DNA of 64,000 nt, taken from assembly GCF_016026235.1 (NCBI RefSeq), contig NZ_CP065613.1. One strand, written 5' to 3'. Shown here piece after piece: positions 1,606 to 50,600 of this stretch (the first letter of the stretch is position 1; every line of letters begins with the position of its first letter). This stretch comes from Escherichia coli (GTDB taxonomy: Bacteria > Pseudomonadota > Gammaproteobacteria > Enterobacterales > Enterobacteriaceae). A program made the position numbers and the translations under genes. The notes under the pieces are model-generated. The model saw only the letters and a program-made list of their open reading frames with translations, searched no databases and was not told where the DNA came from.

Positions 1606-2333
1606 GGTTCCTCCTTGCTGAGCCACGGCCCCTGATTGACGGTGCGTTCCCCAAACAGCCATTGCTGACGATTTAAAGGAACATCCCGGCGGCGCAATAT
1701 TTTGCTCGCGACCAGGCCGTCGTGCTCCCCTTCCCACCAGCATTCATCCTGAAGTTTCGGGAGTGCGATTTTCAGGTCGTGGAAATGCTCCTGATACTGG
1801 TGATATGCGTTACGTAAAACATCAGACGCGTTGCCTTCGAGCAGTAACGGCGCAAGTGGTAATGCCAGCGGATGACTTTTTCGCCCCAGATAAAGAGGAA
1901 AAACTGGATGGCGTAAACCGCCCTGCAACTGTTCGAGGCTGTAAGGCGCATCGGCTGTTGTTGCCACCGCCACCATCCACCAGGCGTCGGTGTAGTAGTC
2001 GCGCCGGGAGATAATCGCGCTCAGAAGATCAGGGTCGCTCAACTCTTCGCGACGGCTGAAATAACGCGCTTTACGCACCTCTTTTGGCATCTGGATCGTG
2101 TGATAATCCCGTGCCCAGCGCGGGTTACGGCTGGCGCAAACCACCAGTGAATAGTGGCGATTAAACGCGTTTAAGCGTTCGGTATCATCACGCCGAATCC
2201 CTACCCCGGCAGCCAGCAGACCCAGCAATGCTGAGCGCAAAGGCAGTTCATGGGTATGACGCACTTCGCCGGGGGCATCGACGCCCCAGGATGCCATTGG
2301 CCCATGAAGCTGAAAAATCAGATATTGGCTCAT
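1587..2333 (-). CDS. casD: CasD / Cas5e, 248 aa
   Basis: N-terminus MSQYLIFQLHGPMASWG matches the Cas5e motif (K-12 MRSYLILRLAGPMQAWG); overlaps casE by 19 nt. Confidence 0.8.
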   Translation of the reverse strand: MSQYLIFQLHGPMASWGVDAPGEVRHTHELPLRSALLGLLAAGVGIRRDDTERLNAFNRHYSLVVCASRNPRWARDYHTIQMPKEVRKARYFSRREELSDPDLLSAIISRRDYYTDAWWMVAVATTADAPYSLEQLQGGLRHPVFPLYLGRKSHPLALPLAPLLLEGNASDVLRNAYHQYQEHFHDLKIALPKLQDECWWEGEHDGLVASKILRRRDVPLNRQQWLFGERTVNQGPWLSKEEPCTSQE

Positions 2334-2343
2334 AAGCCGCCCC

Positions 2344-3399
2344 TTACGCGCAGATAAAGTCCAGCACGTCCTTCATGCTTCCCTGTTTGTTCATCACGTC
2401 AAAACTTGCGCATTCGGTCTTCTGTTCGTAGACCGTATTCATATTTTCGCGAAGCGTTGTAATACGCTGCACCGCCACGTCTAACTGCCGGGTGCCATTA
2501 ATGGGTTCATAGAAGGCCGCAGCCAGAGAACGCGGTTGATCGGTGCCTTTTTCCGCCAGCGCCCAGGAAGCATAGGCACGGCTGGCAAAGCTATTTTGTT
2601 TACCGGTTGGGGAAACTTTAAGCGCGGCTTCCGTAAAAGCGCGTATGGTCTGATTAGCTAACGCTTCGTCACCGCCGAGGTTTTCTACCAGCAGATCTTT
2701 ATCAATGCAGATATAGGTGTAGAAAAGTGCTGAACCGAATCCGGTTTCTCCGAGATGCCCGGCACCGGCATCTTCAGAGGCCTAGCGCAAATCATCAACG
2801 GCGGTGAAAAAATCATCTTCGACAATCGTTTCACTGACACCAAACGCATGCGCGACCTGGCAGGCGGCTTCAACATTAAACTCAGGTTTATTCGCCAGCA
2901 TACGACCAAACATAGCGATATCTACCGCTATACGGTCTTTACGTAACAACGCGAGATCTTCCTCTTTTGGCGCGCGCTTTTCTTCTGCCAGTTGATGGGC
3001 CAGCGCTTTTACGGCGTCAAATTCTGCCGGGCTGATATGAACTAATTGTTCAGTTTCGGCGTTAGTGAGCGGATCTTTTGGTTTTTTGTCGTTTTTAGCT
3101 TTCCCAAGATAATCCGCAATTTTTGCCGCCCATTCGATGGCTTTTTTCTCTTCGATGCCTTTCTCAATCAGGATAGTTGCCGCCTCACGCGCAATTCGCC
3201 CACTGCGAATACCAATATGGCCCGCCAGTGCCTGTTCAAAAAGTGCAGAAGTGCGCCACGCACGTTTCAGACTTTGTGAGGAAACGCGCAGACGCGTTGC
3301 ACCACCCAGTACCACAGTTTTTGGCGCACCAGTATCATCACGGTTAAGGTTGGCAGCAGGGTAAGCGGTTAACAAATGAAGCTGAATAAATGTTGTCAT
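2344..3399 (-). pseudogene. casC: CasC / Cas7e with an in-frame TAG at 2784..2782 (codon 206 of 351)
   Basis: Track ORF 2782..3399 ends ...FTAVDDLR then TAG; same frame continues ASEDAGAGHLGETGFGSALFYTYICIDKDLLVENLGG... to TAA at 2346..2344; both halves align to one Cas7e (K-12 ...FTAVDDLQEQGSAHLG...NLAQLQENLGG). Confidence 0.85.
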
Positions 3400-3413
3400 G
3401 AGATAGTCCTTTA

Positions 3414-3950
3414 TTAATTTTGTTCGTTATCGGCGTCGCCAGCCTGGTAATATTCCAGTGCCCAGCGGATACGGATAAATTCGGTTGGCCGCTGCTGGCG
3501 GCGGTGATGATTGAGCAGGTCGTCGCTCTCCTGGCACCAGCGGAAAATATCTTCTGCCAAAGAGATAAGATTGACGGAACCGTTTAATAATTTGACCGCG
3601 CGACGTAACTGACGCAGTAAATCATCCGGCGTTTTTACTGCCGACAGGCGAGTAAAACGCCCCTCCGACATTACCGCCGCCAGCTGCGCGGCAAAAGGCT
3701 GCCGTTCATCAATGGCTTTTACATTGGCGCTAACTGCGGCGACCAGCGCCAGTGCGGTAAAACGCCACTCTTGTGCTTCAATTTTCCACAAAGTGTGGGT
3801 CTGCATCAGCAGAGAACGAAACCCTTCTGACAAGCAAACATCATTAACCGTTGTGCTACGCCGCAGACTGGCACGATTGCCGCGTTTAGCCTGCAACTCT
3901 TCGTGCCATTTACGCAGCGTGGCTTTGTGCTCCTCTTTTACAATACTCAT
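3414..3950 (-). CDS. casB: CasB / Cse2 small Cascade subunit, 178 aa
   Basis: Size and position between casA and casC in a I-E operon; sequence diverged from K-12 CasB so the call rests mainly on synteny. Confidence 0.7.
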   Translation of the reverse strand: MSIVKEEHKATLRKWHEELQAKRGNRASLRRSTTVNDVCLSEGFRSLLMQTHTLWKIEAQEWRFTALALVAAVSANVKAIDERQPFAAQLAAVMSEGRFTRLSAVKTPDDLLRQLRRAVKLLNGSVNLISLAEDIFRWCQESDDLLNHHRRQQRPTEFIRIRWALEYYQAGDADNEQN

Positions 3951-5509
3951 TCAGCAGCCTCCTGCTTTTTCTCCCTGGCGGCGTTAGCATTTTGCTTCTC
4001 CGCTGATGTTGTAAAATATTTCTTGCGTGCGGTCATGACGCGTTCCAAATCAACGGGCTCATATGGATTGGTAAAGACACGATCGTCAAAATCCTGACGC
4101 GCGAATAACCACATTTCCTTTTGCCATTTACTGAGTAATTCGTCCGGATCCTGACCTTCTTCAATTTTGCGCACTAATCTCAGGAATCGATGCTGAGTTT
4201 TGTTCCAGAAGTCGATATCCACAAAACTAAAATCACCCCTTGCACCTTTTGGATCGGAGAACCATGCTTCTTTCAATGCACTCCGTAACAGACTTAGAAT
4301 CCGTGAAGCTGTTTGCGCAGCCAGCCGCAGCTTCGGTATCTGACCTTCTTTTTTATCGAGCAGCAGCGGGAAATGGTGTTCGTACCAACAGCGCGCTTTC
4401 ATGTTGTCGAAATCATAGCCAAATCCCCACAGGCCCACTTTTGCCTGCTTGAGACTGCTGGCATTGAAGAGTTTCACCACCAGCGCGGGAAGTTCCGTAT
4501 TGTTTTCTGATTTACCCGTTTCGATAAGGCCTAACCAGTCACGCCAGATTAAACCGCCCGGTTGTGGTTTAACGGAGTAAAACTCGCCACCCTCTTTAAG
4601 TGGTACACGGTAAGGCGTTAAGGGATGCTGCCACATGGCATAATTCGCACCGTAATTTTTGGTCGTCATCAGGCTCAGGAGCGCGTCGCTCTGCTCACCG
4701 CAAATATCGCAGTTGCCGACTGTCGTGGTATTAAAATCAATACGAATACGGCGAGGCATTCCCCAGTACGCCTGGAGTTTATTGACCTGCTCATCGGTTA
4801 CCACCGCACCGGCCAGTTCGCTGGTGCGCGTCGGGCCAAGCCAGGGGAAAACCAGATCGTCAAATTTTTTGGGTAGCGGTAAATCGGCTTCATCCTGCGG
4901 CATGACATTGATCCACAGTTTGCGCCACAAGGGAGTTTGTTGATTACCCTGATATTCCTGTAATTCAATCAGAGTGGTCATCGGCCCACCGCCGCGTAAA
5001 CCGGTGCGGTAGCCTTTGCCACCTGACGGCGCATTCAACTGTAGGGAGAACAGAGCTAACGCAGAACAATGTGGGCACAGGTATTCCGTTACACCACGCT
5101 TGATAAAGTGGTCTTTATTAAACTTCGTTGTTTGAGCGCCGGGAATCTCAGGCAGTAGCGAAGCGACCGGAACTTTATCTCCGGTGAGCGCCTCGAAATC
5201 CTGCATAAATGAAGGGGAATCTGGCCCAAACTGGAAAGCATGTTCTAATGACAGCAATGCTTCCCGTAGCTTTTCAGCTTCCAGTCCGTCTTCCCAGATA
5301 TCATCCCAACGACGATGATCTTTTGGCGCGAAGCTGGTTTGTAGTAGCCCCAGCAAAAACTGCCATACCGCACCCTGGAGATCTGCCCGCGGCGCAGAAA
5401 TATCGACAACATTTTCATCCGCCAGATCGACTGGCGCCAGTTTGCCTGTCGTTCCGTCTTTAAAACGAACGGGCAACCACGGGGTTGTCAGAAGTGAAAA
5501 CGAGTTCAT
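3947..5509 (-). CDS. casA: CasA / Cse1 (Cas8e) large Cascade subunit, about 520 aa; start taken at MNSFSLL (ATG 5509..5507) rather than the track start at 5578
   Basis: N-terminus MNSFSLLTTPWLPVR parallels K-12 CasA MNLLIDNWIPVR; GAGAGG RBS-like motif 6 nt upstream; alternative start MRMNSF at 5515. Confidence 0.8.
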   Translation of the reverse strand: MNSFSLLTTPWLPVRFKDGTTGKLAPVDLADENVVDISAPRADLQGAVWQFLLGLLQTSFAPKDHRRWDDIWEDGLEAEKLREALLSLEHAFQFGPDSPSFMQDFEALTGDKVPVASLLPEIPGAQTTKFNKDHFIKRGVTEYLCPHCSALALFSLQLNAPSGGKGYRTGLRGGGPMTTLIELQEYQGNQQTPLWRKLWINVMPQDEADLPLPKKFDDLVFPWLGPTRTSELAGAVVTDEQVNKLQAYWGMPRRIRIDFNTTTVGNCDICGEQSDALLSLMTTKNYGANYAMWQHPLTPYRVPLKEGGEFYSVKPQPGGLIWRDWLGLIETGKSENNTELPALVVKLFNASSLKQAKVGLWGFGYDFDNMKARCWYEHHFPLLLDKKEGQIPKLRLAAQTASRILSLLRSALKEAWFSDPKGARGDFSFVDIDFWNKTQHRFLRLVRKIEEGQDPDELLSKWQKEMWLFARQDFDDRVFTNPYEPVDLERVMTARKKYFTTSAEKQNANAAREKKQEAAE

Positions 5510-5606: not shown

Positions 5607-8295
5607 TCAACCAACCTTGCCAATCAATCCTTCCGTAGCCGAATACCCGCAACTTTCGTCATCGTTGACTAAAATCACGTTTGCCATCTCCGGATCTTGT
5701 CGCTGTTCAATGCACCACAGCCTGAACGCCTCTCCCTCCAGTAAAGAAAACTCATCCCGATGTTTTTTCCACCAGCTTCGGCGCACTCTGACAACGCTCA
5801 TTTCCCATGCGTGAGCACCGGTGGCATAAGGCTTCACCACACCGTCAATACAGGTAGCCAGCCACAGGGAAACAGACTCCTCAGCCAGACGTGTCGACAG
5901 TTTTTCTGGGAGGTAATCGTTGATATTGGCGGCATAGCCGGGCCTGAAGTTCAGCACAAACTTTTTAGCCATTGCGCGATCACAGTAATATTTGCCCACT
6001 TGCTCCTGCTCGCTGCGGGAAAATCCTTCCGGCATTACCACGTCCTCACCGTAGACGGATTCAATAAGAAGCCGGGCTGCGTGTGGCATCTGAATAGCGC
6101 CTTGCCCACGCAGCACACGCTGCGTCAGCCAGATTCGCCCATGATCGGGGTAGACAAATGCACTGTTACGCATCGCACTGCCAAACCATTCATCACCCGG
6201 AGAGTCGTCCCAGACGGGTGCCAGAATCAGCAATTCAGGAGGGGAACGCTCGTCTTTTCCGTCACGCTTTAACTGACCATTAATATCGCGAATATGCCGC
6301 TGTAATCGCCCCGCTCGCTGGATTAGCAAATCAATGGGGGCCAGGTCGGAGATCATTTCGTCCATATCGCAATCAACGCTCTGCTCCAATACCTGAGTGC
6401 TAATAAGGACTTTTCCGGCACGCTGTGAGCTACCTTCTTTACCAAAGCGTGCCAGCGTTTCCGTTTCAATTCGCTGGCGATCGCTAAAAGCAAAGCGGCT
6501 ATGAAAAAGTGAAAGGCTGGAAGCAGGAATGACGCCGCGGGCAAGCAGCTGACGATAAACCTTAATAGCGTCATCGACAGAATTCCGGATCCAGGCGATG
6601 CATTTCCCCTGACTCACCGCCGATTCGATACGCGCAATACACTCTTGTTCGCTATGAAGCCAACCCACGCTCACGCTACGCTCAACGTCTTTGCGCGTCG
6701 CTACCCGGTGTGAATTCACATTGGATTTCGTAACGTGCGTCAGCCAGGGGTAATCATCCTTTTCAAGGAACGGAGCTTCTTGCTGGCCCTCTGTACCCCG
6801 CGCAAAGGCGGCGACGAGTTTGTCGCGCTGCTGTTGGGATAACGTAGCAGAAAGCAAAATGACGCTGTTTCCACCACGCGCCTGCCGCTCGATCAGCCCT
6901 TCAAGAATGCATGACATGTAAGCGTCACAGGCGTGGATCTCATCAGCCAGCAGGATTTTGTTACTCAGCCCCAGAAGCCGCAGATTATTATGTTTGAACG
7001 GCATCACCGCCATCATCGCCTGATCCAGCGTGCCGACGCCAATTTCAGCCAGTAAAGCCTTCTTGTTACTGTCGGCAAACCAGGCTGCACATCCTTGACT
7101 GAACGCTTGTTCATCCGGTTCTTCTGACCCGACTAAATCACCGGACCAGAGTGATTCATTAAAGCGGTCCATTAATGTACGGGCGCTGTGTGCCAGCACC
7201 AGGCTGGGGCGGGATTCTGGCGAATAGAAAGAAAGCCAGGTTTTGACCAGCCGATCGTACATGGCATCGGCCGTTGCCATTGTTGGCAGGCCAAAGCGCT
7301 TTACCCGCAGCCATCAACCTGTGCGCCAGGATAAGCGCCGCTTCTGTTTTACCTGCGCCAGTCACATCTTCCAGAATAAATAACTGTGGCCCTGGCTGGC
7401 TGATATCCAGATCCAGTACCTTTTGCTGTAATGGTGTCGAGTGCTCAATAAAAGGAAACAGCGTATTAATTCCGGTGAAAGGTGCGGTTTCTGCTTTTGG
7501 AGGAAAGACGGTTAAGGCGTTTTGTGCCTGAACTAAAGTTTTCTGCCAGTAATCTTTAATATTCATTGTCTGTGCGACGCGTGGAAAAAATCGCGTTGAC
7601 GAACCCGTCCAGTCTGCGAGTACGACTGTTGCAGAGATATACCAGGAAAGTTGTTTTAAAAGTTCAACGCCCTCGTCATCATCCCAGAATGTGGGAATCT
7701 CTATGAGCGGAAACAGTGCCTTGATTGCAAGGAGAAAATCTCGCGCGGCAGCTTTGTCTTCAGGCAGAAAATTATCCAGCTCATCAATACGGTCAGGTGG
7801 TCGACCATGATGCCCGGTAGTTATGGACATCCACATCTCTATTACACGTGTAAGTTTACGAGAAGAGAGTGAAGATGAAGGAAGCAACTCCTCACATTCA
7901 CTTAAATAATAATTCCACAGCCAGTAACCCAGCGTTGAATGAGAGATCTTTTCGTAATTCTTTCTGGAACCTTCCGGAATCTTGAGTTCAGGGGCCAGGT
8001 AAAGTTGCTGAAAAGAGCGGGCAAATTTTCCAATATCGTGCCAGCACAGCAACCAGGCGAAAAATTGAGCCGCCTGTTCCTTGTCAGAAATCCCTAATTG
8101 ACGAAAATAATCAGCCAGCCCGAAGCAATTTCTTTTAACCATTAAATAGCCCATCGCGGCTACATCCAGCGAATGCCAGCAAAGAAGGTGATAGTCGTCG
8201 CCCCCGTCTTTCTCGCCGCGTCGGGTTTTTCCCCAGAAATCAAAAAAAGTCACAATATTTTTATCCTTCAGTAAACTTAAAGGATATTTACGCAT
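5607..8295 (-). pseudogene. cas3: Cas3 HD-nuclease/helicase split by a frameshift into two overlapping ORFs (7159..8295 and 5607..7280)
   Basis: N-terminal ORF has HD motif (WHDIGKF) and Walker A (VTGAGKTEAAL); C-terminal ORF has DExH (LLADEIHACD); frames switch between about 7280 and 7316 (LMAAGKA... in one frame, ...FGLPTMATADAM in the other). Confidence 0.85.
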
Positions 8296-8476
8296 ATATT
8301 AAAAATTATCTGTGATATATATCAGCCAATAAAACATTTATATTGTGAATAAATTTATGATTTTCATTTGAAATTCATAATAATAAATAGAGACAATATA
8401 TTCACATAAAAAATATAAATTTAAAAAAGGGTGCAGGAGACCAAACCATCACAATTCAATACGCGGGGTTTTACCC
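8296..8476 (-). promoter_or_regulatory. Very AT-rich region upstream of cas3; probable promoter / nucleoid-protein-bound region
   Basis: About 180 bp of strongly AT-biased sequence directly upstream of the cas3 start; promoter function inferred from position only. Confidence 0.3.
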
Positions 8477-9770
8477 CTGAGGGATCCCCAGAAAATTTAG
8501 TAAACCATTATCATATTGGTATACCGTTGCTGTAGAACTTTCAGCCCTGCGTCAAGTGACAGTGTGTTTAGTATGAGTGGAGAATGTCGAATCACATTCT
8601 CCGCCAGTTTTAATAACGAGATGACTCGCCTGTGCTTCACTGTATTTGCCTGATATTTATGATGTATCCCTTTGTTTTCCAGGCTGAAACCGCTTAACCA
8701 CATAATGATACTGGCTAATGTTGCGATCAGACTCAATACCGTGACCCGCCCGGATGAATGACTGGCACCAAACCGTAGTCCAAATCCCCAGCGAGGATTT
8801 TTTTCATCCCTGAAATTTTGCTCAATTTGCATTCTACGGCTGTATAATTTCATTACCTGTTTTGGCGAGAACTCAGTACTGTTTGTGAAAATAAACCATG
8901 GTGATTTCCCGGCAGTACGAGCTTTAGCCGTCACCGATGGTCTGGTTGCTCTTTCCTTCGAGCGTTTAAATCTACGACCTTTAGGCTTACTTTTATAAAG
9001 ATAAAAATGCCCTTCATGTTGTGCATTTTTATCTCGACCCAGCAGGCCTTCACCTAAATAAATTGCTGTCGTTGATGCTTTTGTGCCTGAGTCCGACACC
9101 TTTTCCCAGCCATTACCAACATTGTAATAATGATTGCCCAGTACCCGGCAAATATAGGTCCAGCCACGGGAGCGGAGCTGTTGGAACCATCGCCCCTGAA
9201 AACCGGCATCTGTAATAACAATGACATCAGTCCCGGGGGAAAAGCACTCAGCAAGCGATTCCAGAAAACGCTCATGTACATCTGCATTCGCTGTCTGTGA
9301 TGATGGAACGACACAACTCATCAACGGTAAAGAACGCCCGTCACATGCCAGGCTTGCCCGCAAAAGCTGAAAACGAGAGGCATGATAAGCACTCCAGTCA
9401 ATGAGTATCACAACACGAGACATTCCCCGCGTAATCTTTTGGGTAATTCGCTGAAAAATGGTGGAAACCTCATTTTGCAAATGTCGATTCCCCAACAGTC
9501 GATCCACCCGCTTTATTTTGTTTTTAACTGATGCCGTACCGGTTAAATGACGCCCGATACTGGTAAGTGTGAGGGAAGCGCCATTTATTACAGCATTAGT
9601 TGCGTCAATCAGTGATTTTTGACGGTAAAGATGCAAAGGGGCCAGTATGTTGTTAAGGAAATTTTGGCATAATGAACGTGCAGGCATAGTGGTGATCTCC
9701 TTGAAATTGTTAGCACAATCAATTAGATCACATCTCACTATGCCTGTCTTGTTTTCTGGGGATTCCTCAG
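8477..9770 (-). mobile_element. IS4-family, IS10-like insertion sequence (about 1.29 kb); boundaries approximate
   Basis: Imperfect terminal inverted repeats CTGAGGGATCCCC (8477..) and GGGGATTCCTCAG (..9770) resemble IS10 ends; encloses an IS10-like transposase; the 9-bp flanks do not match (no target-site duplication). Confidence 0.75.
8497..9687 (-). CDS. IS10-like DDE transposase, 396 aa (start at MPARSL, inside the IS)
   Basis: Segments ...KIKRVDRLLGNRHL... and ...YSRRMQIEQNFRDEKNP...KYQANTV... closely parallel the IS10 transposase (KRIDRLLGNRHL, YSKRMQIEETFRDLKSP, HFQANTV). Confidence 0.85.
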   Translation of the reverse strand: MPARSLCQNFLNNILAPLHLYRQKSLIDATNAVINGASLTLTSIGRHLTGTASVKNKIKRVDRLLGNRHLQNEVSTIFQRITQKITRGMSRVVILIDWSAYHASRFQLLRASLACDGRSLPLMSCVVPSSQTANADVHERFLESLAECFSPGTDVIVITDAGFQGRWFQQLRSRGWTYICRVLGNHYYNVGNGWEKVSDSGTKASTTAIYLGEGLLGRDKNAQHEGHFYLYKSKPKGRRFKRSKERATRPSVTAKARTAGKSPWFIFTNSTEFSPKQVMKLYSRRMQIEQNFRDEKNPRWGFGLRFGASHSSGRVTVLSLIATLASIIMWLSGFSLENKGIHHKYQANTVKHRRVISLLKLAENVIRHSPLILNTLSLDAGLKVLQQRYTNMIMVY

Positions 9771-9990
9771 GGGCGATCCTCCAGTTCAAATATAAGGTCA
9801 GAACCTGCATGGTTTATATCAGACATCCCTTCACTCCTTTTAAAGTAAATTTGATCATCTGAATTAGTAAAATAAATTCCCACGAATTTGGGGCGCAGGA
9901 CGCCTTGAGAACGGCTTATCTCATTTTCGCAGTCACTATTTAGTCATCGTTCAAACAGAGAAACAGGCCGCCGAAGCGGCCATTTATTAT

Positions 9991-12861
9991 TTATATTTTT
10001 TCCAGCGCAGTGAGTATTTTCTCCGGTGTGAAATGCCATTCGCGTAACCAGATGCCGCATGCATCGTGAATTGCGGTAGCAATCGCCGGAGCTGCGCCAT
10101 TTACACCGATTTCCGAGATCGATTTCGCCCCGAACGGGCCGACTTTATCGTCGCTCGGCACCAGCACAGCGCGGAAATCACGCGGAATGTCACCAATTTT
10201 CGGTGCGCCGTAACTGCGTAAATCACGCGTTAACGGGTGACCTTCGGCGTCATAAATGATCTCTTCGCTCATACTGTGGCCGATAGCACGCAGGGTGGCA
10301 CCGTAGATTTGTCCCAACGCTAACTCTGGATTGACCGGTGTACCGCAGTCCAGCAAGGCGTAGAATTTATCCAGGCGGATTTCACCCGTACGCGTGTTGA
10401 CGGCAACTTCAGCGAAGTTTGCGCCATACGGGAAAGCGAAATCAGGCGTGATATAACTGCCAGTTCCCACCAGTGAACCAAAGCCGGTGCCGGTTTCGCC
10501 TTTATGGGCAATATCCCCGAAACTAACTTCGCCTTTCTTGCCGCGCACGACGCCCGGCGTTGCTAGTTGAACATCTGCCACTGGCTCACCCAACATTTGC
10601 GCGCCGTGGAACAGAATTTTCTCCCGCAGATTTTCCGCTGCCAAACGCGCCGCGTTACCCGAGAAGCAAGTACCGGACGAGGCATATGCGCCTTTATCAA
10701 ACAACGCATGATCGGTATCACCGGAGATAACATGCACGTCCTGCGGTGGGCAGTGCAGCACTTCTGCTGCCAGTTTCGTCACTACAGTATCCAGACCAGT
10801 ACCAATATCCGCACCGCCAGAATGAACGATAAAGGTGCCGTCCGATTCCAGTTTGATCATGCAGTTAGCCTGATCGATATCCGGGATACCCGATTTCTGC
10901 ATGATAATGGCGACGCCGCGACCGATGTGCCAGTCACCATTTTGCGGTTTCGGTGAAGACCATTGGATCATCTCGCGACCCTGACGCAGGATCTCTTCCA
11001 GTGCGCAGCTGGCGGCGGAAGGAACGGAGGTCGGCGCTTTACCTTCACCGATTGCACCGAGAATTTTCAGCTCTTGCCCTTCGTGTACCCGGTTACGTTC
11101 GATAATTTCCAGTTGGTCGATCTGTAACTGTTCAGCCAGTTCCGCTAATGCCATGGTGATAGCGAAGTTACCTTTCGGTGCGCCATAACCCTGATAAGCA
11201 CCATTTGGGCAAATGTTGCTGTAGTAGGTGGTGACCTGGAAATCGACGTTATCGCACGGATATAACGGCAGCGACAGCGCCGGTCCGTTACATGGTACGG
11301 TGAGTGAGTGGTTGCCGTAAGGGCCAGTGTTGGCGCGGAAATCCATCTTCACTGCCGTCAGGCGACCATCTTTTTTCGCTCCCAGTTTGACGGTGACTTT
11401 CGCGACGTGACGAGAGGTGTTAGCAATAAACTCTTCTTCACGGGTGTAGCGGAACAGGACCGGACGCCCGGTCACGCAGGTTGCCCAGGCGCACACTTCT
11501 TCCAGCAGGATGTCCTGTTTGGAACCAAAACCGCCGCCAACTCGTTCTTTAATGACATGAACTTTATGCTGTTTCATGCCCACGAGGCGCGCGACCTGGC
11601 GGCGTAAGTGCCATGGTACCTGGGTGGAGGCGTGGATAACCAGACGATCGCCGTCCATACGAGTAAAGCAGATATGTGTTTCAGTCGGGCACTGCTGCGC
11701 TTGCGTTGAGTTATAGGTTCGCTCAATGATCACATCGGCATCGGCAAAGCCTTTGTCCATATCGCCAATATGACCATGAATACTGGCGGCGATATTTTTG
11801 CGTGGACGAGAACCGATCGGGAAGTTGATGATCATATGCTCGCCGCGCTGGGCTGCATGGCTGTTATCGTCTTCCAGAGTATCTGGCGCACCAGCAACAT
11901 ACACAACCGGTTCATCGTGCACGACAGGCGCATCTTCCGCCATTGCTTCGTCGATCGACATTACCGGTTTAAGCACTTCATATTCAACGTCGATGAGCTT
12001 CAATGCTTCAAGCGCAATTTCTTCACTTTCAGCGACGACCGCAGCAACACGATCGCCGACGTGACGCATTTTCTTGCCGAACATACGGCGGTCAAGCGGT
12101 GACGGTTCCGGTGCGCTCTGCCCCCCCGGGGTATAGTAGATATCCGGGCAATTCAGATGAGTAATAACGTGAACGACGCCCGGTAAGGCTTCAGCTTTGC
12201 TGACATCCAGATGAGTAATCAGTGCGTGAGCGTGTGGGCTACGTAACATTTTAATGACGCAGGCGTCAGCCGTTACGCGGTCTTCAACATAGCAGGGCTT
12301 CGCCTGCACCATTTTTGCGGCATCAGTTTTAGGATAATGCTTACCAATGACTTCAAGGTCGTCACGGAAAGTCGGAGCGATATCAATGGTGGCCTGCGGA
12401 TTATTTTTACGTGCAACCGCCAGTTCAATGACCTGATAGTATTGTTGCCAGCCTGCATCGCGGCTGAACAAACCAGAAAGCGCGTCGTCGATCTCTTCGC
12501 GGGTAGGTGCGGCGATGCGATCGAGAAGATCGGTGATAATCAGAGCCGCAGCTGGATCGTTATAACCAGACTGCACCACGCCAACATCAACCATTGCCTG
12601 TTGAACCAGACTTAACTCGTTCCATTTGCCCAGAGATTCTGCGGTACGAATATCTGCCTTCTCTAACTGTGCGGCAATAAGCAAGGACGCGTTAACGATA
12701 TTACCGTTAAAGATAATTGCGTCAGAACCGGCAAACCCGAAGCCATCATCACTGTTGCGTACAGAGTGCATTCCCATGTTAAACAACAGCTTTTGCACGT
12801 TTTCGCCTGGATTAACGGTTAGCTCCTGAGGCGCGCCATTTAAAGTAAAGTGGATGATCAT
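9991..12861 (-). CDS. xdhD: Molybdopterin-binding xanthine-dehydrogenase-family protein with N-terminal 2Fe-2S domain, 956 aa
   Basis: Length and N-terminus MIIHFTLNGAPQELTVNPGENVQKLL match E. coli XdhD/YgfN as recalled. Confidence 0.9.
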   Translation of the reverse strand: MIIHFTLNGAPQELTVNPGENVQKLLFNMGMHSVRNSDDGFGFAGSDAIIFNGNIVNASLLIAAQLEKADIRTAESLGKWNELSLVQQAMVDVGVVQSGYNDPAAALIITDLLDRIAAPTREEIDDALSGLFSRDAGWQQYYQVIELAVARKNNPQATIDIAPTFRDDLEVIGKHYPKTDAAKMVQAKPCYVEDRVTADACVIKMLRSPHAHALITHLDVSKAEALPGVVHVITHLNCPDIYYTPGGQSAPEPSPLDRRMFGKKMRHVGDRVAAVVAESEEIALEALKLIDVEYEVLKPVMSIDEAMAEDAPVVHDEPVVYVAGAPDTLEDDNSHAAQRGEHMIINFPIGSRPRKNIAASIHGHIGDMDKGFADADVIIERTYNSTQAQQCPTETHICFTRMDGDRLVIHASTQVPWHLRRQVARLVGMKQHKVHVIKERVGGGFGSKQDILLEEVCAWATCVTGRPVLFRYTREEEFIANTSRHVAKVTVKLGAKKDGRLTAVKMDFRANTGPYGNHSLTVPCNGPALSLPLYPCDNVDFQVTTYYSNICPNGAYQGYGAPKGNFAITMALAELAEQLQIDQLEIIERNRVHEGQELKILGAIGEGKAPTSVPSAASCALEEILRQGREMIQWSSPKPQNGDWHIGRGVAIIMQKSGIPDIDQANCMIKLESDGTFIVHSGGADIGTGLDTVVTKLAAEVLHCPPQDVHVISGDTDHALFDKGAYASSGTCFSGNAARLAAENLREKILFHGAQMLGEPVADVQLATPGVVRGKKGEVSFGDIAHKGETGTGFGSLVGTGSYITPDFAFPYGANFAEVAVNTRTGEIRLDKFYALLDCGTPVNPELALGQIYGATLRAIGHSMSEEIIYDAEGHPLTRDLRSYGAPKIGDIPRDFRAVLVPSDDKVGPFGAKSISEIGVNGAAPAIATAIHDACGIWLREWHFTPEKILTALEKI

Positions 12862-13637
12862 ACGGCTTCCTCCCCAGCCTGTTGGCAGTCGGCATACAGG
12901 TCGGCTACCAGAACTCCCGTGATATAGCGTTTATAGGCCACGCTGCCCCGCAAATCTTCCTGCGGGAAAATGGCGTTGGCGACAGCCTGTTCAAGTGCAT
13001 TGCCTTCCAGATTTTGTTTTTCGACATCGTGCAGACGCAGTGCTTTACTGGCGACGCCATCCAGCGCAATTCGCATACCGTCGTGGTCTGTCATTGCAAC
13101 GGCTGCCGTCACGACGGTTAAACCTGCCTGAGAACGGCTAATTTTGCGGGTCGCACAGGTGCGATACGGATCTTTAATGATAATTTCGGTTAGCAGGCGA
13201 TCGCATGGGCAGGTCAGGTAGTCCTCGATTGACAGCGTTTCGCCGTTGCCAAAAACCAGTTCAGCATCCAGTGCTAGCAGGACGGGAAGCAGCACCGACT
13301 CTTCCTGCCGGGCAGCGATTTCACCACCAATGGTCGACTGATTACGAACATGGCGTGAGTAAACAAAACCGAGGGCTTCACGCAGTGCTGCAGGAATAAA
13401 TCGCGCATCACGCAGTGGCTGCAAGCGAGACATTGCGCCAATCCGCAGTGCACCGTTATCCCAGTCAACCCAGTCCAGTTCCAGATCCTGTAAGGAGATG
13501 GCAATCTTTTTATCGGTACGGGTTGGTGTAGCATTGAGTTTGCTGCCCCCGGCGAACCAGACGGCTTCATCCTGGTAGCGGCGCTTCAGTTCCAGCGCCT
13601 GTTCGACAGAGTCGGGCCTGAAAAATTGTTCAATCAT
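12858..13637 (-). CDS. ygfM: FAD-binding subunit of a molybdenum hydroxylase, 259 aa
   Basis: Size and position between ssnA and xdhD as in K-12. Confidence 0.85.
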   Translation of the reverse strand: MIEQFFRPDSVEQALELKRRYQDEAVWFAGGSKLNATPTRTDKKIAISLQDLELDWVDWDNGALRIGAMSRLQPLRDARFIPAALREALGFVYSRHVRNQSTIGGEIAARQEESVLLPVLLALDAELVFGNGETLSIEDYLTCPCDRLLTEIIIKDPYRTCATRKISRSQAGLTVVTAAVAMTDHDGMRIALDGVASKALRLHDVEKQNLEGNALEQAVANAIFPQEDLRGSVAYKRYITGVLVADLYADCQQAGEEAV

Positions 13638-35301: not shown

Positions 35302-35356
35302 GGTGATGCTGCCAACTTACTGATTTAGTGTATGATGGTGTTTTTGAGGTGCTCCA

Positions 35357-35632
35357 GTGGCTTCTGTTTCTATCAGCTGTCCCTCCTGTTCAGCTACTGA
35401 CGGGGTGGTGCGTAACGGCAAAAGCACCGCCGGACATCAGCGCTATCTCTGCTCTCACTGCCGTAAAACATGGCAACTGCAGTTCACTTACACCGCTTCT
35501 CAACCCGGTACGCACCAGAAAATCATTGATATGGCCATGAATGGCGTTGGATGCCGGGCAACTGCCCGCATTATGGGCGTTGGCCTCAACACGATTTTAC
35601 GTCACTTAAAAAACTCAGGCCGCAGTCGGTAA
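35357..35632 (+). CDS. insA: IS1 InsA, 91 aa
   Basis: Protein [43 protein letters not shown]... is the IS1 InsA sequence. Confidence 0.9.
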
Positions 35633-36054
35633 CCTCGCGCATACAGCCGGGCAGTGACGTCATCGTCTGCGCGGAAATGGACGAACAGTGGGGCTATGTC
35701 GGGGCTAAATCGCGCCAGCGCTGGCTGTTTTACGCGTATGACAGTCTCCGGAAGACGGTTGTTGCGCACGTATTCGGTGAACGCACTATGGCGACGCTGG
35801 GGCGTCTTATGAGCCTGCTGTCACCCTTTGACGTGGTGATATGGATGACGGATGGCTGGCCGCTGTATGAATCCCGCCTGAAGGGAAAGCTGCACGTAAT
35901 CAGCAAGCGATATACGCAGCGAATTGAGCGGCATAACCTGAATCTGAGGCAGCACCTGGCACGGCTGGGACGGAAGTCGCTGTCGTTCTCAAAATCGGTG
36001 GAGCTGCATGACAAAGTCATCGGGCATTATCTGAACATAAAACACTATCAATAA
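35551..36054 (+). CDS. insB: IS1 InsB reading frame (expressed as InsAB' by frameshifting)
   Basis: 167-aa ORF overlapping insA, typical IS1 organisation. Confidence 0.85.
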
Positions 36055-36069
36055 GTTGGAGTCATTACC

Positions 36070-36248
36070 CGTCGGGTCAATGTCAATGGTGGCGCGATCG
36101 CACTCGGTCACCCGATAGGCGCTTCCGGTTGCCGAATCCTGGTTTCTCTGGTTCATGAAATGGTGAAACGTAATGCCCGCAAAGGGCTGGCAACGCTTTG
36201 TATCGGCGGGGGCCAGGGCGTGGCATTGACCATTGAACGTGACGAGTA
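36070..36248 (+). pseudogene. yqeF: 3' remnant (about 59 codons) of a thiolase gene, truncated by IS1
   Basis: In-frame C-terminus ...[54 protein letters not shown] is a thiolase tail; sits upstream of kduI as yqeF does in K-12. Confidence 0.7.
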
Positions 36249-36405
36249 GCTCTGCATTTCCTCCTTACCGATAAATATCTGCCGTCATTAATCTGTTGAA
36301 TAATGATGGCTGGCAAGTCGACATTCATTTTCTGGGCTCCCTCATTTTTCCATTCTCATGACATATTCGTGATCGACACTGCACTTTTTTTAATCCTTAA
36401 CTTAA

Positions 36406-36426
36406 AAATGAAACATTGTTTTATTT
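36406..36426. promoter_or_regulatory. KdgR-operator-like palindrome upstream of kduI
   Basis: AAATGAAACATTGTTTTATTT resembles the KdgR box AATGAAACAnTGTTTCATT. Confidence 0.35.
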
Positions 36427-36473
36427 TTAATTGAAAACCCTAGCCCATGGGCATATCATCCCTTTATAGAGAA

Positions 36474-36491
36474 AACGAAACAGTGTTTCAC
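36474..36491. promoter_or_regulatory. Second KdgR-like palindrome upstream of kduI
   Basis: AACGAAACAGTGTTTCAC, inverted repeat GAAACA-N-TGTTTC, about 45 bp upstream of the kduI GTG start. Confidence 0.35.
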
Positions 36492-36535
36492 TATCGTTTT
36501 CTATTTTCACGCTTCACTGATTATCGGAGGTTGAT

Positions 36536-37372
36536 GTGGACGTAAGACAGAGCATCCACAGTGCGCACGCAAAAACGCTGGATACCCAAGGGCTGCGCAA
36601 TGAATTTTTGGTTGAAAAGGTATTTGTCGCCGATGAGTACACCATGGTTTACAGCCACATTGACCGAATTATTGTTGGCGGCATTATGCCGATAACTAAA
36701 ACGGTTTCCGTTGGCGGGGAAGTTGGTAAACAACTCGGCGTAAGCTATTTCCTTGAACGTCGCGAGTTAGGTGTTATCAATATTGGCGGTGCCGGTACGA
36801 TTACTGTCGATGGCCAATGCTATGAAATCGGTCACCGCGACGCCCTGTATGTTGGTAAAGGTGCAAAAGAAGTTGTCTTTGCCAGTATTGATACCGCCAC
36901 TCCGGCAAAGTTTTATTACAATTGCGCACCCGCGCATACGACGTATCCCACCAAAAAAGTCACACCGGACGAAGTATCTCCAGTCACGTTAGGCGATAAC
37001 CTCACCAGTAACCGTCGCACAATTAACAAATATTTTGTCCCGGATGTGCTGGAAACCTGCCAATTGAGTATGGGGCTGACGGAGCTGGCTCCAGGTAACT
37101 TGTGGAACACCATGCCGTGTCACACTCACGAGCGCCGGATGGAAGTTTATTTCTATTTCAATATGGATGATGACGCCTGCGTTTTCCACATGATGGGGCA
37201 GCCGCAAGAAACGCGTCACATTGTGATGCATAACGAGCAGGCGGTGATCTCCCCGAGCTGGTCGATTCATTCCGGCGTCGGAACCAAAGCTTATACCTTT
37301 ATCTGGGGCATGGTCGGTGAAAACCAGGTCTTTGATGATATGGACCATGTGGCCGTTAAAGATTTGCGCTAG
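36536..37372 (+). CDS. kduI: 5-dehydro-4-deoxy-D-glucuronate isomerase, 278 aa (GTG start)
   Basis: [24 protein letters not shown]... matches KduI. Confidence 0.95.
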
Positions 37373-49161: not shown

Positions 49162-50587
49162 TAATGCCAGTCAGTTAAGCAACTGACTGGCTCTTTTTCG
49201 GGGCTGTGGGGTATTTCCAGGGCCTCTCCTTTACCACTCTCGGGAAGGCCCTTCCCCTTCTCGTCGGTAATTTCACAAGTTGTCCCATACTTGCAAGATC
49301 GCGCATCAGCTCCGGTATACGTCCCGGTGAAGCGCCCTGCAATGTCATCAGCATTCTCATCACCATTCCGCATGATTCTGAGAAACTCAGTTGATTCGGC
49401 CAGTAACCTTTCAGATGTTCCGCCATTTTAATCATCTGATATCTCACCAGATTATAAGCCAGTAAGACACCCCACAGCTCTTGCTCCACAAGCTCCGGCT
49501 TTTTACTTCTCAGCGTCAGCCTGCTCAGTTGCATCGTCTGTTTTATCTCCCTGTATCCCAGTTCGATTTCCCAGCGATGACTGTACAGATCCGCCATTTC
49601 TCCTCCGGGGAAGCGCATGGCGTCCGTCATCGACGTCAGCAGATGGCAGACTTTTCCTTTGCGCGTCACGGTCAGCAGGCGGGCTGTCACTTCATTTCCC
49701 AGTCCCGGCCACTTTTTTCGTGCCTGCGGGCTGGTTTTCAGCTTCACCAGATGATCGCCTTTACCCAGTTTTCTGAGCTCTTCATATTGCGCTCCCTTTC
49801 TGAGAGGTATCATCCAGTGGCGGTGTTCTCCCGCCAGGCTCCAGGCATTTAACAGTCCCAGTGAGTAATAACCTTTATCCATTAACGTCAGAGTGTTATC
49901 GCCGGTTTGTTCTATAAGTTGCTCAGCAAGCTCATTTTCGCTGTTCTTCATCGTGCCGAAGGCTGCAGCCGTCAGCAGATGGCTGGTCAGTTCCATCTGG
50001 CAGACCATTTTGACCTGCGGGTAGAGCGCCGGGTTCCCGGCATGTGTCTGGCGGGGGAAGGCTGCATCGTTCTCTGGTGTATCCGGTGTGCGCCAGAACA
50101 CACCATCGATGGCCAGCAGGGTCAGGCCGCACCAGTGCGGATGCGGCGTGGCGTTATGCCAGAGCTGCGCTGTTTTCGTGAACACGCGGCGGACAGCCTC
50201 ACTTCCCAGGCGCTGGCGGGCCTGAATAACGGCACTGGGGGCAACGAAGGGGCGATTGCCCGGCAGCATGATGTCCAGGCGATTCACAATCTGGTGAAGA
50301 GGTTCTTTACGCTCAAGCGCCATGCCAACAATACACCAGACCATCATTTCGAGGGGAAGACGGCGCTTGCGTAGCGTTACAGTACCTGATTCGGCAAGGC
50401 AACGAGAGATGAGTTCGGGGTCGAGGTAATCCCCCAGAGAAGTCAGTGGGTTACGCAGAGAATCGTAACGGGATACCAGATCAAGAGCCTGTCCAATGTG
50501 CATAAAAAAATCCGGAAACAAGTGAGCGTTTCCGGATTCTTACACAGCCACTGGATCGGTCAACTGATCCTTAACTGATCGGCATTA
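49162..50587 (-). mobile_element. IS4 (1426 bp)
   Basis: Terminal inverted repeats TAATGCCAGTCAGTTAAG (left) and CTTAACTGATCGGCATTA (right); encodes the IS4 transposase; flanked by a 13-bp direct repeat. Confidence 0.9.
49175..50503 (-). CDS. insG: IS4 transposase InsG, 442 aa (start [10 protein letters not shown])
   Basis: Sequence recognised as IS4 InsG. Confidence 0.9.
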
Positions 50588-50600
50588 CAGCCGGATGCTG
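50588..50600. repeat. IS4 target-site duplication, right copy (CAGCCGGATGCTG)
   Basis: Identical to 49149..49161. Confidence 0.7.

Follow-up and report, generated by a model that had tools for sequence, protein, structure and literature searches.

How cas3 came to lie next to xdhD, with an insertion sequence (IS) between them whose flanks lack a target-site duplication, is the question raised by a 64,000-bp stretch of the Escherichia coli contig NZ_CP065613.1 (assembly GCF_016026235.1), hereafter called the window. The interval singled out in the original prediction, 8296-9990, is the entire cas3-xdhD spacer and is larger than the element itself, being bounded by the ATG of cas3 at 8295 (minus strand) and the stop codon of xdhD at 9991. 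It begins with 181 bp of cas3 upstream region (8296-8476), which matches the uninterrupted cas3-hokX spacers of other E. coli as far as window position 8477 and ends within the terminator hairpin of hokX with the bases GCGGGGTTTTACCC. The element follows at 8477-9770 (minus strand), and xdhD, intact and encoding 956 aa, occupies 9991-12861 (minus strand) according to the open reading frame list and alignment. According to the earlier description the 3' end of xdhD comes directly after the IS, which proved incorrect: the alignment to K-12 stops at 3,024,406 and the K-12 xanQ gene starts at 3,024,351, so that the right breakpoint lies inside xanQ, at nt 56, and IS and xdhD therefore do not abut. 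Between them lie a xanQ 5' fragment (9771-9826, minus strand; nt 1-56, i.e. codons 1-18 plus 2 nt), identified by K-12 alignment, and the 164-bp xanQ-xdhD intergenic region (9827-9990), identified by K-12 comparison. The existence of the junction was thus borne out, but the sites of its breakpoints had to be redefined as nt 56 of xanQ on the right, instead of the end of xdhD, and the hokX terminator on the left.

The element, which runs from CTGAGGGATCCCC to GGGGATTCCTCAG, is intact and, over its 1294 bp, 100% identical to several copies annotated by NCBI PGAP as 'IS4-like element ISEc60'. These annotated copies, found in chromosomes and pINV-type plasmids of enteroinvasive-type (EIEC-type) E. 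coli, share its terminal repeats and its 396-aa transposase, WP_001111632.1. The transposase gene (8497-9687, minus strand) scored 360 bits against the NCBIfam model NF033591 for the IS4 family, for which the cut-off is 152, and PF01609 was matched on the called 396-aa gene. The longest transposase open reading frame (437 aa, 8497-9810) has its ATG in the xanQ flank, beyond the end of the IS, and gene callers start the transposase at the internal ATG at 9687; transcription from the xanQ promoter might conceivably read through into the transposase. The inverted repeats that had been recognised earlier are present at 8477-8495 (left, transposase-stop end) and 9752-9770 (right, transposase-start end), with 18 of 19 bases complementary, as established by repeat search and copy comparison. 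The ends were set by comparison with 10 other insertions at 9 sites. The repeat search itself gave a 22-nt inverted repeat (8474-8495/9752-9773), the outer 3 bp of which (8474-8476/9771-9773) were rejected as IS sequence and are regarded as a coincidence of the flanks, because other ISEc60 copies differ at those bases. Transposase, terminal repeats and nucleotide identity all agree, and the element is ISEc60, of the IS4 family. A literature search on ISEc60 and on the assembly accessions returned nothing relevant.

The earlier designation of the element as IS4-family and IS10-like holds for the family, but its likeness to IS10 is distant. The transposase shows 36% identity over 93% of its length to the transposases of IS10A and ISVsa5 (E 4e-64), and 'IS10-like' is therefore fair only as a distant family resemblance. 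With these members of the IS10 group of the IS4 family, ISEc60 shares a related DDE transposase, a length of about 1.3 kb and a symmetric target consensus, and its termini, starting CTGAG.GATCCCC, presumably resemble IS10 ends. An IS10 isoform or close variant was rejected on the grounds that 36% transposase identity is far below isoform level and that the target duplications measure 10-11 bp, not 9 bp, the size of the duplication produced by IS10. The targets differ as well, those of ISEc60 resembling G[GA][GT]-N4-5-[CT]C[CT], often inside GGGG...CCCC hairpins, and not NGCTNAGCN.

All 10 simple ISEc60 insertions, at 9 sites, are flanked by perfect direct duplications of 10 or 11 bp. Seven insertions at six sites carry 10 bp, among them GGGCGATCCT, GGGATAACCA, GAGAAATCCT, GGTAAATCCC (twice, in a tandem pair) and GAGAATGCCC, and three sites carry 11 bp, among them GGGATTTTCCC and GGGGTTTTACC. 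The window copy differs from these simple insertions in having no 10-11-bp duplication: its left flank, GGGTTTTACCC (8466-8476, plus strand), and its right flank, GGGCGATCCT (9771-9780, plus strand), do not match at any length from 6 to 15 bp. The original prediction was accordingly right that the flanks lack a target duplication, although the size it expected, 9 bp, should be 10-11 bp as seen at the 10 simple insertions. A matching 9-bp duplication at better-defined ends, which it had named as the finding that would speak against it, was sought with the refined ends and is absent; alternative end definitions giving a 9-bp duplication were likewise rejected by flank comparison. The mismatch of the flanks argues against a simple insertion and not against the identity of the element as ISEc60. 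For comparison, the window also holds, at about 49162-50589 (K-12 ~2,971,500), a plain IS4 insertion with a 12-13-bp duplication, (C)AGCCGGATGCTG, in contrast to the duplication-less ISEc60.

The origin of the two flanks became apparent in the closest complete relative, FDAARGOS_943 (NZ_CP065615.1), which is 99.94% identical, with 4 mismatches to the window over 6.9 kb of xdhD-ygfK, and in which about 36 places match ISEc60. In this genome an ISEc60 copy, here termed IS_B, lies at the exact xanQ position of the window with GGGCGATCCT on both sides, followed by the rest of xanQ and guaD. The right flank of the window element is one copy of this 10-bp duplication. At the other locus, uninterrupted relatives read ACGCGGGGTTTTACCCCCGCGTGG, a hairpin that lies immediately 3' of hokX, a Hok/Gef gene, and then continue into cysH. 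FDAARGOS_943 instead carries a second ISEc60, IS_A, and reads cysJ-cysI-cysH-hokX, R-end to L-end, iap, with GGGTTTTACCCCCGCGTGG flanking the R-end; at this junction of the R-end with GGGTTTTACCCCCGC-hokX-cysH the transposase is on the strand opposite to that of IS_B. Joined to the window sequence GGGGTTTTACCC that abuts the L-end, the R-end flank of FDAARGOS_943 reconstitutes a normal insertion with the 11-bp duplication GGGTTTTACCC, of which the left flank of the window element is one copy, derived from the ancestral hokX-terminator insertion IS_A. The complementary copy of GGGTTTTACCC, placed after the ISEc60 R-end beside hokX, was seen in FDAARGOS_943, GCA_031665325.1 and GCA_900449985.1. 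The segment between IS_A and IS_B is un-inverted in FDAARGOS_943, where both copies are kept on opposite strands. The window copy is thus chimeric, its left junction coming from IS_A and its right junction from IS_B, and this origin from two separate insertions explains why it has no duplication.

Further relatives bear on the two sites. A plain ISEc60 insertion at the hokX terminator is present in GCA_901482675.2, offset by 1 bp from IS_A, so that this terminator was used at two positions 1 bp apart in close relatives (GGGTTTTACCC and GGGGTTTTACC). This offset indicates that the hokX-terminator site has been hit recurrently, and given this recurrence it is from the identical junctions that we infer a common IS_A ancestry of the window genome and FDAARGOS_943. 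On contigs UGBG01000002.1 and UGBT01000002.1 ISEc60 occupies exactly this xanQ position with unchanged orientation, between flanks only 98.9% identical to the window, a pattern suggestive of a hot spot or of recombinational transfer. A look-up with the 428-aa truncated XanQ found un-inverted ISEc60::xanQ genomes; GCA_900449985.1 was not among them, because the rest of xanQ is deleted at its second junction (see below). The same look-up with a 434-aa truncated XanQ found adapter-ended short contigs only, and that with GuaD, a common allele, was uninformative, as was one with the exact XdhD sequence, whose allele occurs in 53,151 blocks. In FDAARGOS_943 the L-end of the hokX-terminator ISEc60 (positions 36058-37351 of the extracted locus) adjoins the iap side, with the CRISPR-1 array and the cas operon entirely absent; this is an IS-associated deletion.

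Alignment to K-12 showed that the DNA to the right of the element has been turned around. Window 9771-64000 (minus strand) is colinear with K-12 from 3,024,406 down to 2,958,101 in reverse and represents the in-window part of a 125.8-kb inverted segment, whereas the cas genes keep their K-12 orientation; reversed colinearity was observed over 54 kb in the window and again at the other end of the segment, for cysJ-hokX. Near the junction the sign of the GC skew switches, from negative up to about 12 kb to positive from 16 kb on. The window junction (J1) is present with 100% identity on contig UGFA01000002.1 of GCA_900449985.1, with ISEc60 at 3,870,614-3,871,907; this contig was reached through an exact-protein search with the 378-aa Cas3 fragment described below, and searching with the FDAARGOS_943 allele of CysJ located the second junction (J2) on the same contig. 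J2 reads cysJ-cysI-cysH-hokX, the complement of GGGTAAAACCC, ISEc60 from nt 1294 down to nt 535, IS4, and CGACATTTGCCGGGG leading on to lysS. Its ISEc60 remnant (3,744,081-3,744,840) is cut off by IS4 and lies in the orientation opposite to that of the window copy, which runs from 1 to 1294. From the coordinates of J1 and J2 the inverted block measures 125,773 bp (3,744,841-3,870,613). The halves of the duplication have been exchanged, GGGTTTTACCC forming the left flank of the window IS and its reverse complement lying beside the R-end at J2; of the xanQ duplication, GCA_900449985.1 has lost the other half, which is documented only in relatives (FDAARGOS_943). An independent assembly, GCA_014155105.1, also shows J1 with 100% identity across 12.5 kb, and J2 is the same in GCA_031665325.1.

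Most of what had been proposed for this locus was therefore upheld. An IS without a duplication at an unusual adjacency is confirmed and does mark a rearrangement, its flanks being halves of the hokX-terminator and xanQ insertions; the xdh-to-kduI block lies, as suggested, in a large inversion with one breakpoint here, the other junction being 125.8 kb away; and the oppositely oriented second copy that had been anticipated near cysH or xanQ was found at hokX/cysH, with the complementary half of the left-flank duplication. The gene order that the prediction had given as normal agrees with that of relatives, which have cas3-hokX-cysH and xdhD-xanQ-guaD, and the alignment of the window to K-12 shows a reversed segment. 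The inversion reading of the cas3-xdhD junction is supported.

J2 has been reworked. It lacks ISEc60 nt 1-534 and about 10 kb of chromosome comprising the rest of xanQ, guaD, ghxQ, ygfS, ygfT, uacT and idi, and in place of the missing DNA it has an IS4 (positions 12018-13445 of the extracted locus) that is itself chimeric. The left flank of this IS4 is ISEc60 nt 535-546, and in a pINV plasmid the same ISEc60 site (nt 534-546) is occupied by a plain IS4 flanked by a 12-13-bp duplication; the right flank, CGACATTTGCCG, is exactly the duplication copy seen in four unrelated genomes where a plain IS4 lies between idi and lysS. Both appear as recurrent IS4 targets, ISEc60 nt 534-546 in both orientations and the idi-lysS terminator sequence CGACATTTGCCG in four unrelated E. 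coli. FDAARGOS_943 has neither an IS4 in IS_A nor an IS4 at idi-lysS.

Under the proposed course of events, two ordinary and oppositely oriented insertions of ISEc60 would have been present in the ancestor at a distance of about 126-137 kb: IS_A in the hokX terminator hairpin, between cas3 and cysH, with the 11-bp duplication GGGTTTTACCC, and IS_B in xanQ after nt 56, with the 10-bp duplication GGGCGATCCT. Inverted repeats give rise to inversions through RecA-dependent recombination, and host homologous recombination between the inverted IS_A and IS_B would have flipped the intervening DNA, yielding the cas3-upstream region, ISEc60 and xanQ'-xdhD as in the window, and hokX, ISEc60 and the rest of xanQ at the other end. 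Later, an IS4 inserted in the second-junction ISEc60 may have recombined with an IS4 at the idi-lysS terminator, the pair now being direct, which would have removed ISEc60 nt 1-534 and about 10 kb. This succession, in which the ISEc60 pair made the inversion and the IS4 pair then made the deletion, is considered the best explanation, with about an even chance of being correct.

The same elements may also have acted in reverse order, a course that is possible at somewhat lower probability. An IS4 already resident in IS_A would have recombined with an inverted IS4 at the idi-lysS terminator, inverting the DNA from hokX to idi; IS_B and the leftmost 546 bp of IS_A would thereby have come to lie in direct orientation, and recombination between them would have removed the IS4 together with the DNA from idi to the rest of xanQ, making the window junction a deletion product. 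The IS4 ends abutting ISEc60 nt 535 and lysS are opposite ends, as this order requires, IS4 does insert both at ISEc60 nt 534-546 and at idi-lysS, and with an IS4 already in IS_A the 1426 bp of IS4 homology would exceed the 534-546 bp of ISEc60 available. However, FDAARGOS_943 lacks an IS4 at either place, the number of events is as large as in the inversion-first order and not smaller, and the intermediate genome was not found among the genomes examined, none of which has an intermediate structure of any sort. The polymorphisms within the IS did not locate a crossover, 768A being private to the FDAARGOS_943 copy and 1173A occurring only in the J2 fragment. We lean slightly towards the order in which the ISEc60 inversion preceded the IS4 deletion; the window element is an IS_A/IS_B recombinant under both orders.

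Explanations that do without recombination between two resident copies fare far worse. If the xanQ copy had attacked the hokX terminator by intramolecular transposition, a second copy, an inverted 11-bp duplication and the inversion would all have arisen at once with no prior IS_A, and the junctions of GCA_900449985.1, taken alone, would look the same as under the two-step model. Yet FDAARGOS_943 has the identical junction of R-end and hokX together with the xanQ copy and an un-inverted segment, and therefore ISEc60 sat at the exact hokX position without the inversion; a plain hokX-terminator insertion also exists in GCA_901482675.2, and the studied IS4-family elements, such as IS10 and IS50, are known to move by non-replicative cut-and-paste. 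A one-step origin is thus highly improbable, and we infer recombination rather than transposition. A repeat-induced misjoin across one of the roughly 36 ISEc60 copies deserves mention in so far as the four junctions of IS ends with flanks are identical before and after the inversion, so that short reads cannot separate the two states, and draft contigs break at the IS. Against such an artefact, J1 is identical (100%, 12.5 kb) in two separate multi-megabase assemblies, J2 is the same in two assemblies, the two junctions are mutually consistent, and the GC skew flips at the junction. As for an ancestral or alternative cas3-xdhD order, into which an IS would simply have inserted and its duplication then decayed, only the bare adjacency speaks for it; relatives have cas3-hokX-cysH and xdhD-xanQ-guaD, the two flanks correspond exactly to halves of two insertions that are themselves documented, and the cas3-IS-xdhD adjacency occurs in 0 of 5,426 complete E. 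coli genomes, none of which covers 80% or more of window 8000-10300, or of 7700-8900, at a single place. The sharing of J1 and J2 across assemblies and the absence of the adjacency from the complete genomes make both accounts very unlikely, a misassembly having only a slight chance and an ancestral order hardly any.

The lineage is ridden with IS, the window also holding an IS1 and an IS4, and shows decay and rearrangement elsewhere. In the ETT2 island region an IS1 at 35302-36069 stands in place of K-12 2,984,591-2,998,772 (yqeF' to ygeQ'), about 14 kb having been lost in this IS1-associated deletion. GCA_900449985.1 holds a second duplication-less and chimeric ISEc60, joining a ygcU fragment to a ygcN fragment (positions 3303-4596 of the extracted locus); its ygcU flank matches a plain insertion in GCA_901482675.2, and a deletion of about 6 kb between two ISEc60 copies is therefore implied, while a look-up with YgcN did not find this form of the gene in GCA_900449985.1. 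On the other side of the junction, cas3 is a pseudogene (5607-8295, minus strand), broken into open reading frames of 557 and 378 aa by a deletion of 11 bp near 7296 that shows on alignment to intact cas3 of relatives; the gene calls are Cas3_HD (378 aa) and Cas3-like_C (521 aa), and the 378-aa Cas3 fragment is lineage-specific, occurring on 20 contigs in the public collection. The cas7/casC gene (2333-3399) has an in-frame stop near 2784, a Q-to-stop change in ...DDLR*ASED.... From the casC stop and the cas3 frameshift it follows that the type I-E system has decayed.

A thread that is only mildly new is the apparent choice of target by ISEc60. The element may be strongly site-selective for short GGG-N5-CCC stem-loops, such as terminators, which it would cut with a 10-11-bp stagger, and the hokX terminator and xanQ nt 47-56 may have been hit repeatedly and independently across lineages, but this remains a tentative and rather doubtful proposal. 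Were it true, inverted repeats would be pre-positioned in the chromosome, and both this inversion and the loss of the cas locus would be recurrent, not one-off, events.

IS-mediated inversions by homologous recombination between inverted copies have been described for IS-rich E. coli and Shigella, and the event studied here is of a type already known, a textbook IS-driven rearrangement common in IS-rich E. coli and Shigella-like strains. It provides a cleanly resolved case of a multicopy IS reshaping such a chromosome: two nested recombinations are superimposed, and an intra-replichore inversion of 126 kb is explained by the two IS pairs, ISEc60 and IS4, as is a 10-kb loss that takes the purine-salvage genes xanQ, guaD, ghxQ and uacT as well as idi. 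In a sister strain, the loss of the entire CRISPR-Cas operon is associated with the same copy of ISEc60. Its use lies in structural-variant annotation and in the caution it suggests in assembling IS-rich genomes, and it carries little weight beyond this strain. As in the described inversions, both breakpoints lie at IS copies of opposite orientation with the duplication halves exchanged, the block is colinear but reversed, and un-inverted relatives hold both parent copies; there is no difference in kind, the particular feature of this case being a second junction reworked by an IS4 pair with a 10-kb deletion.
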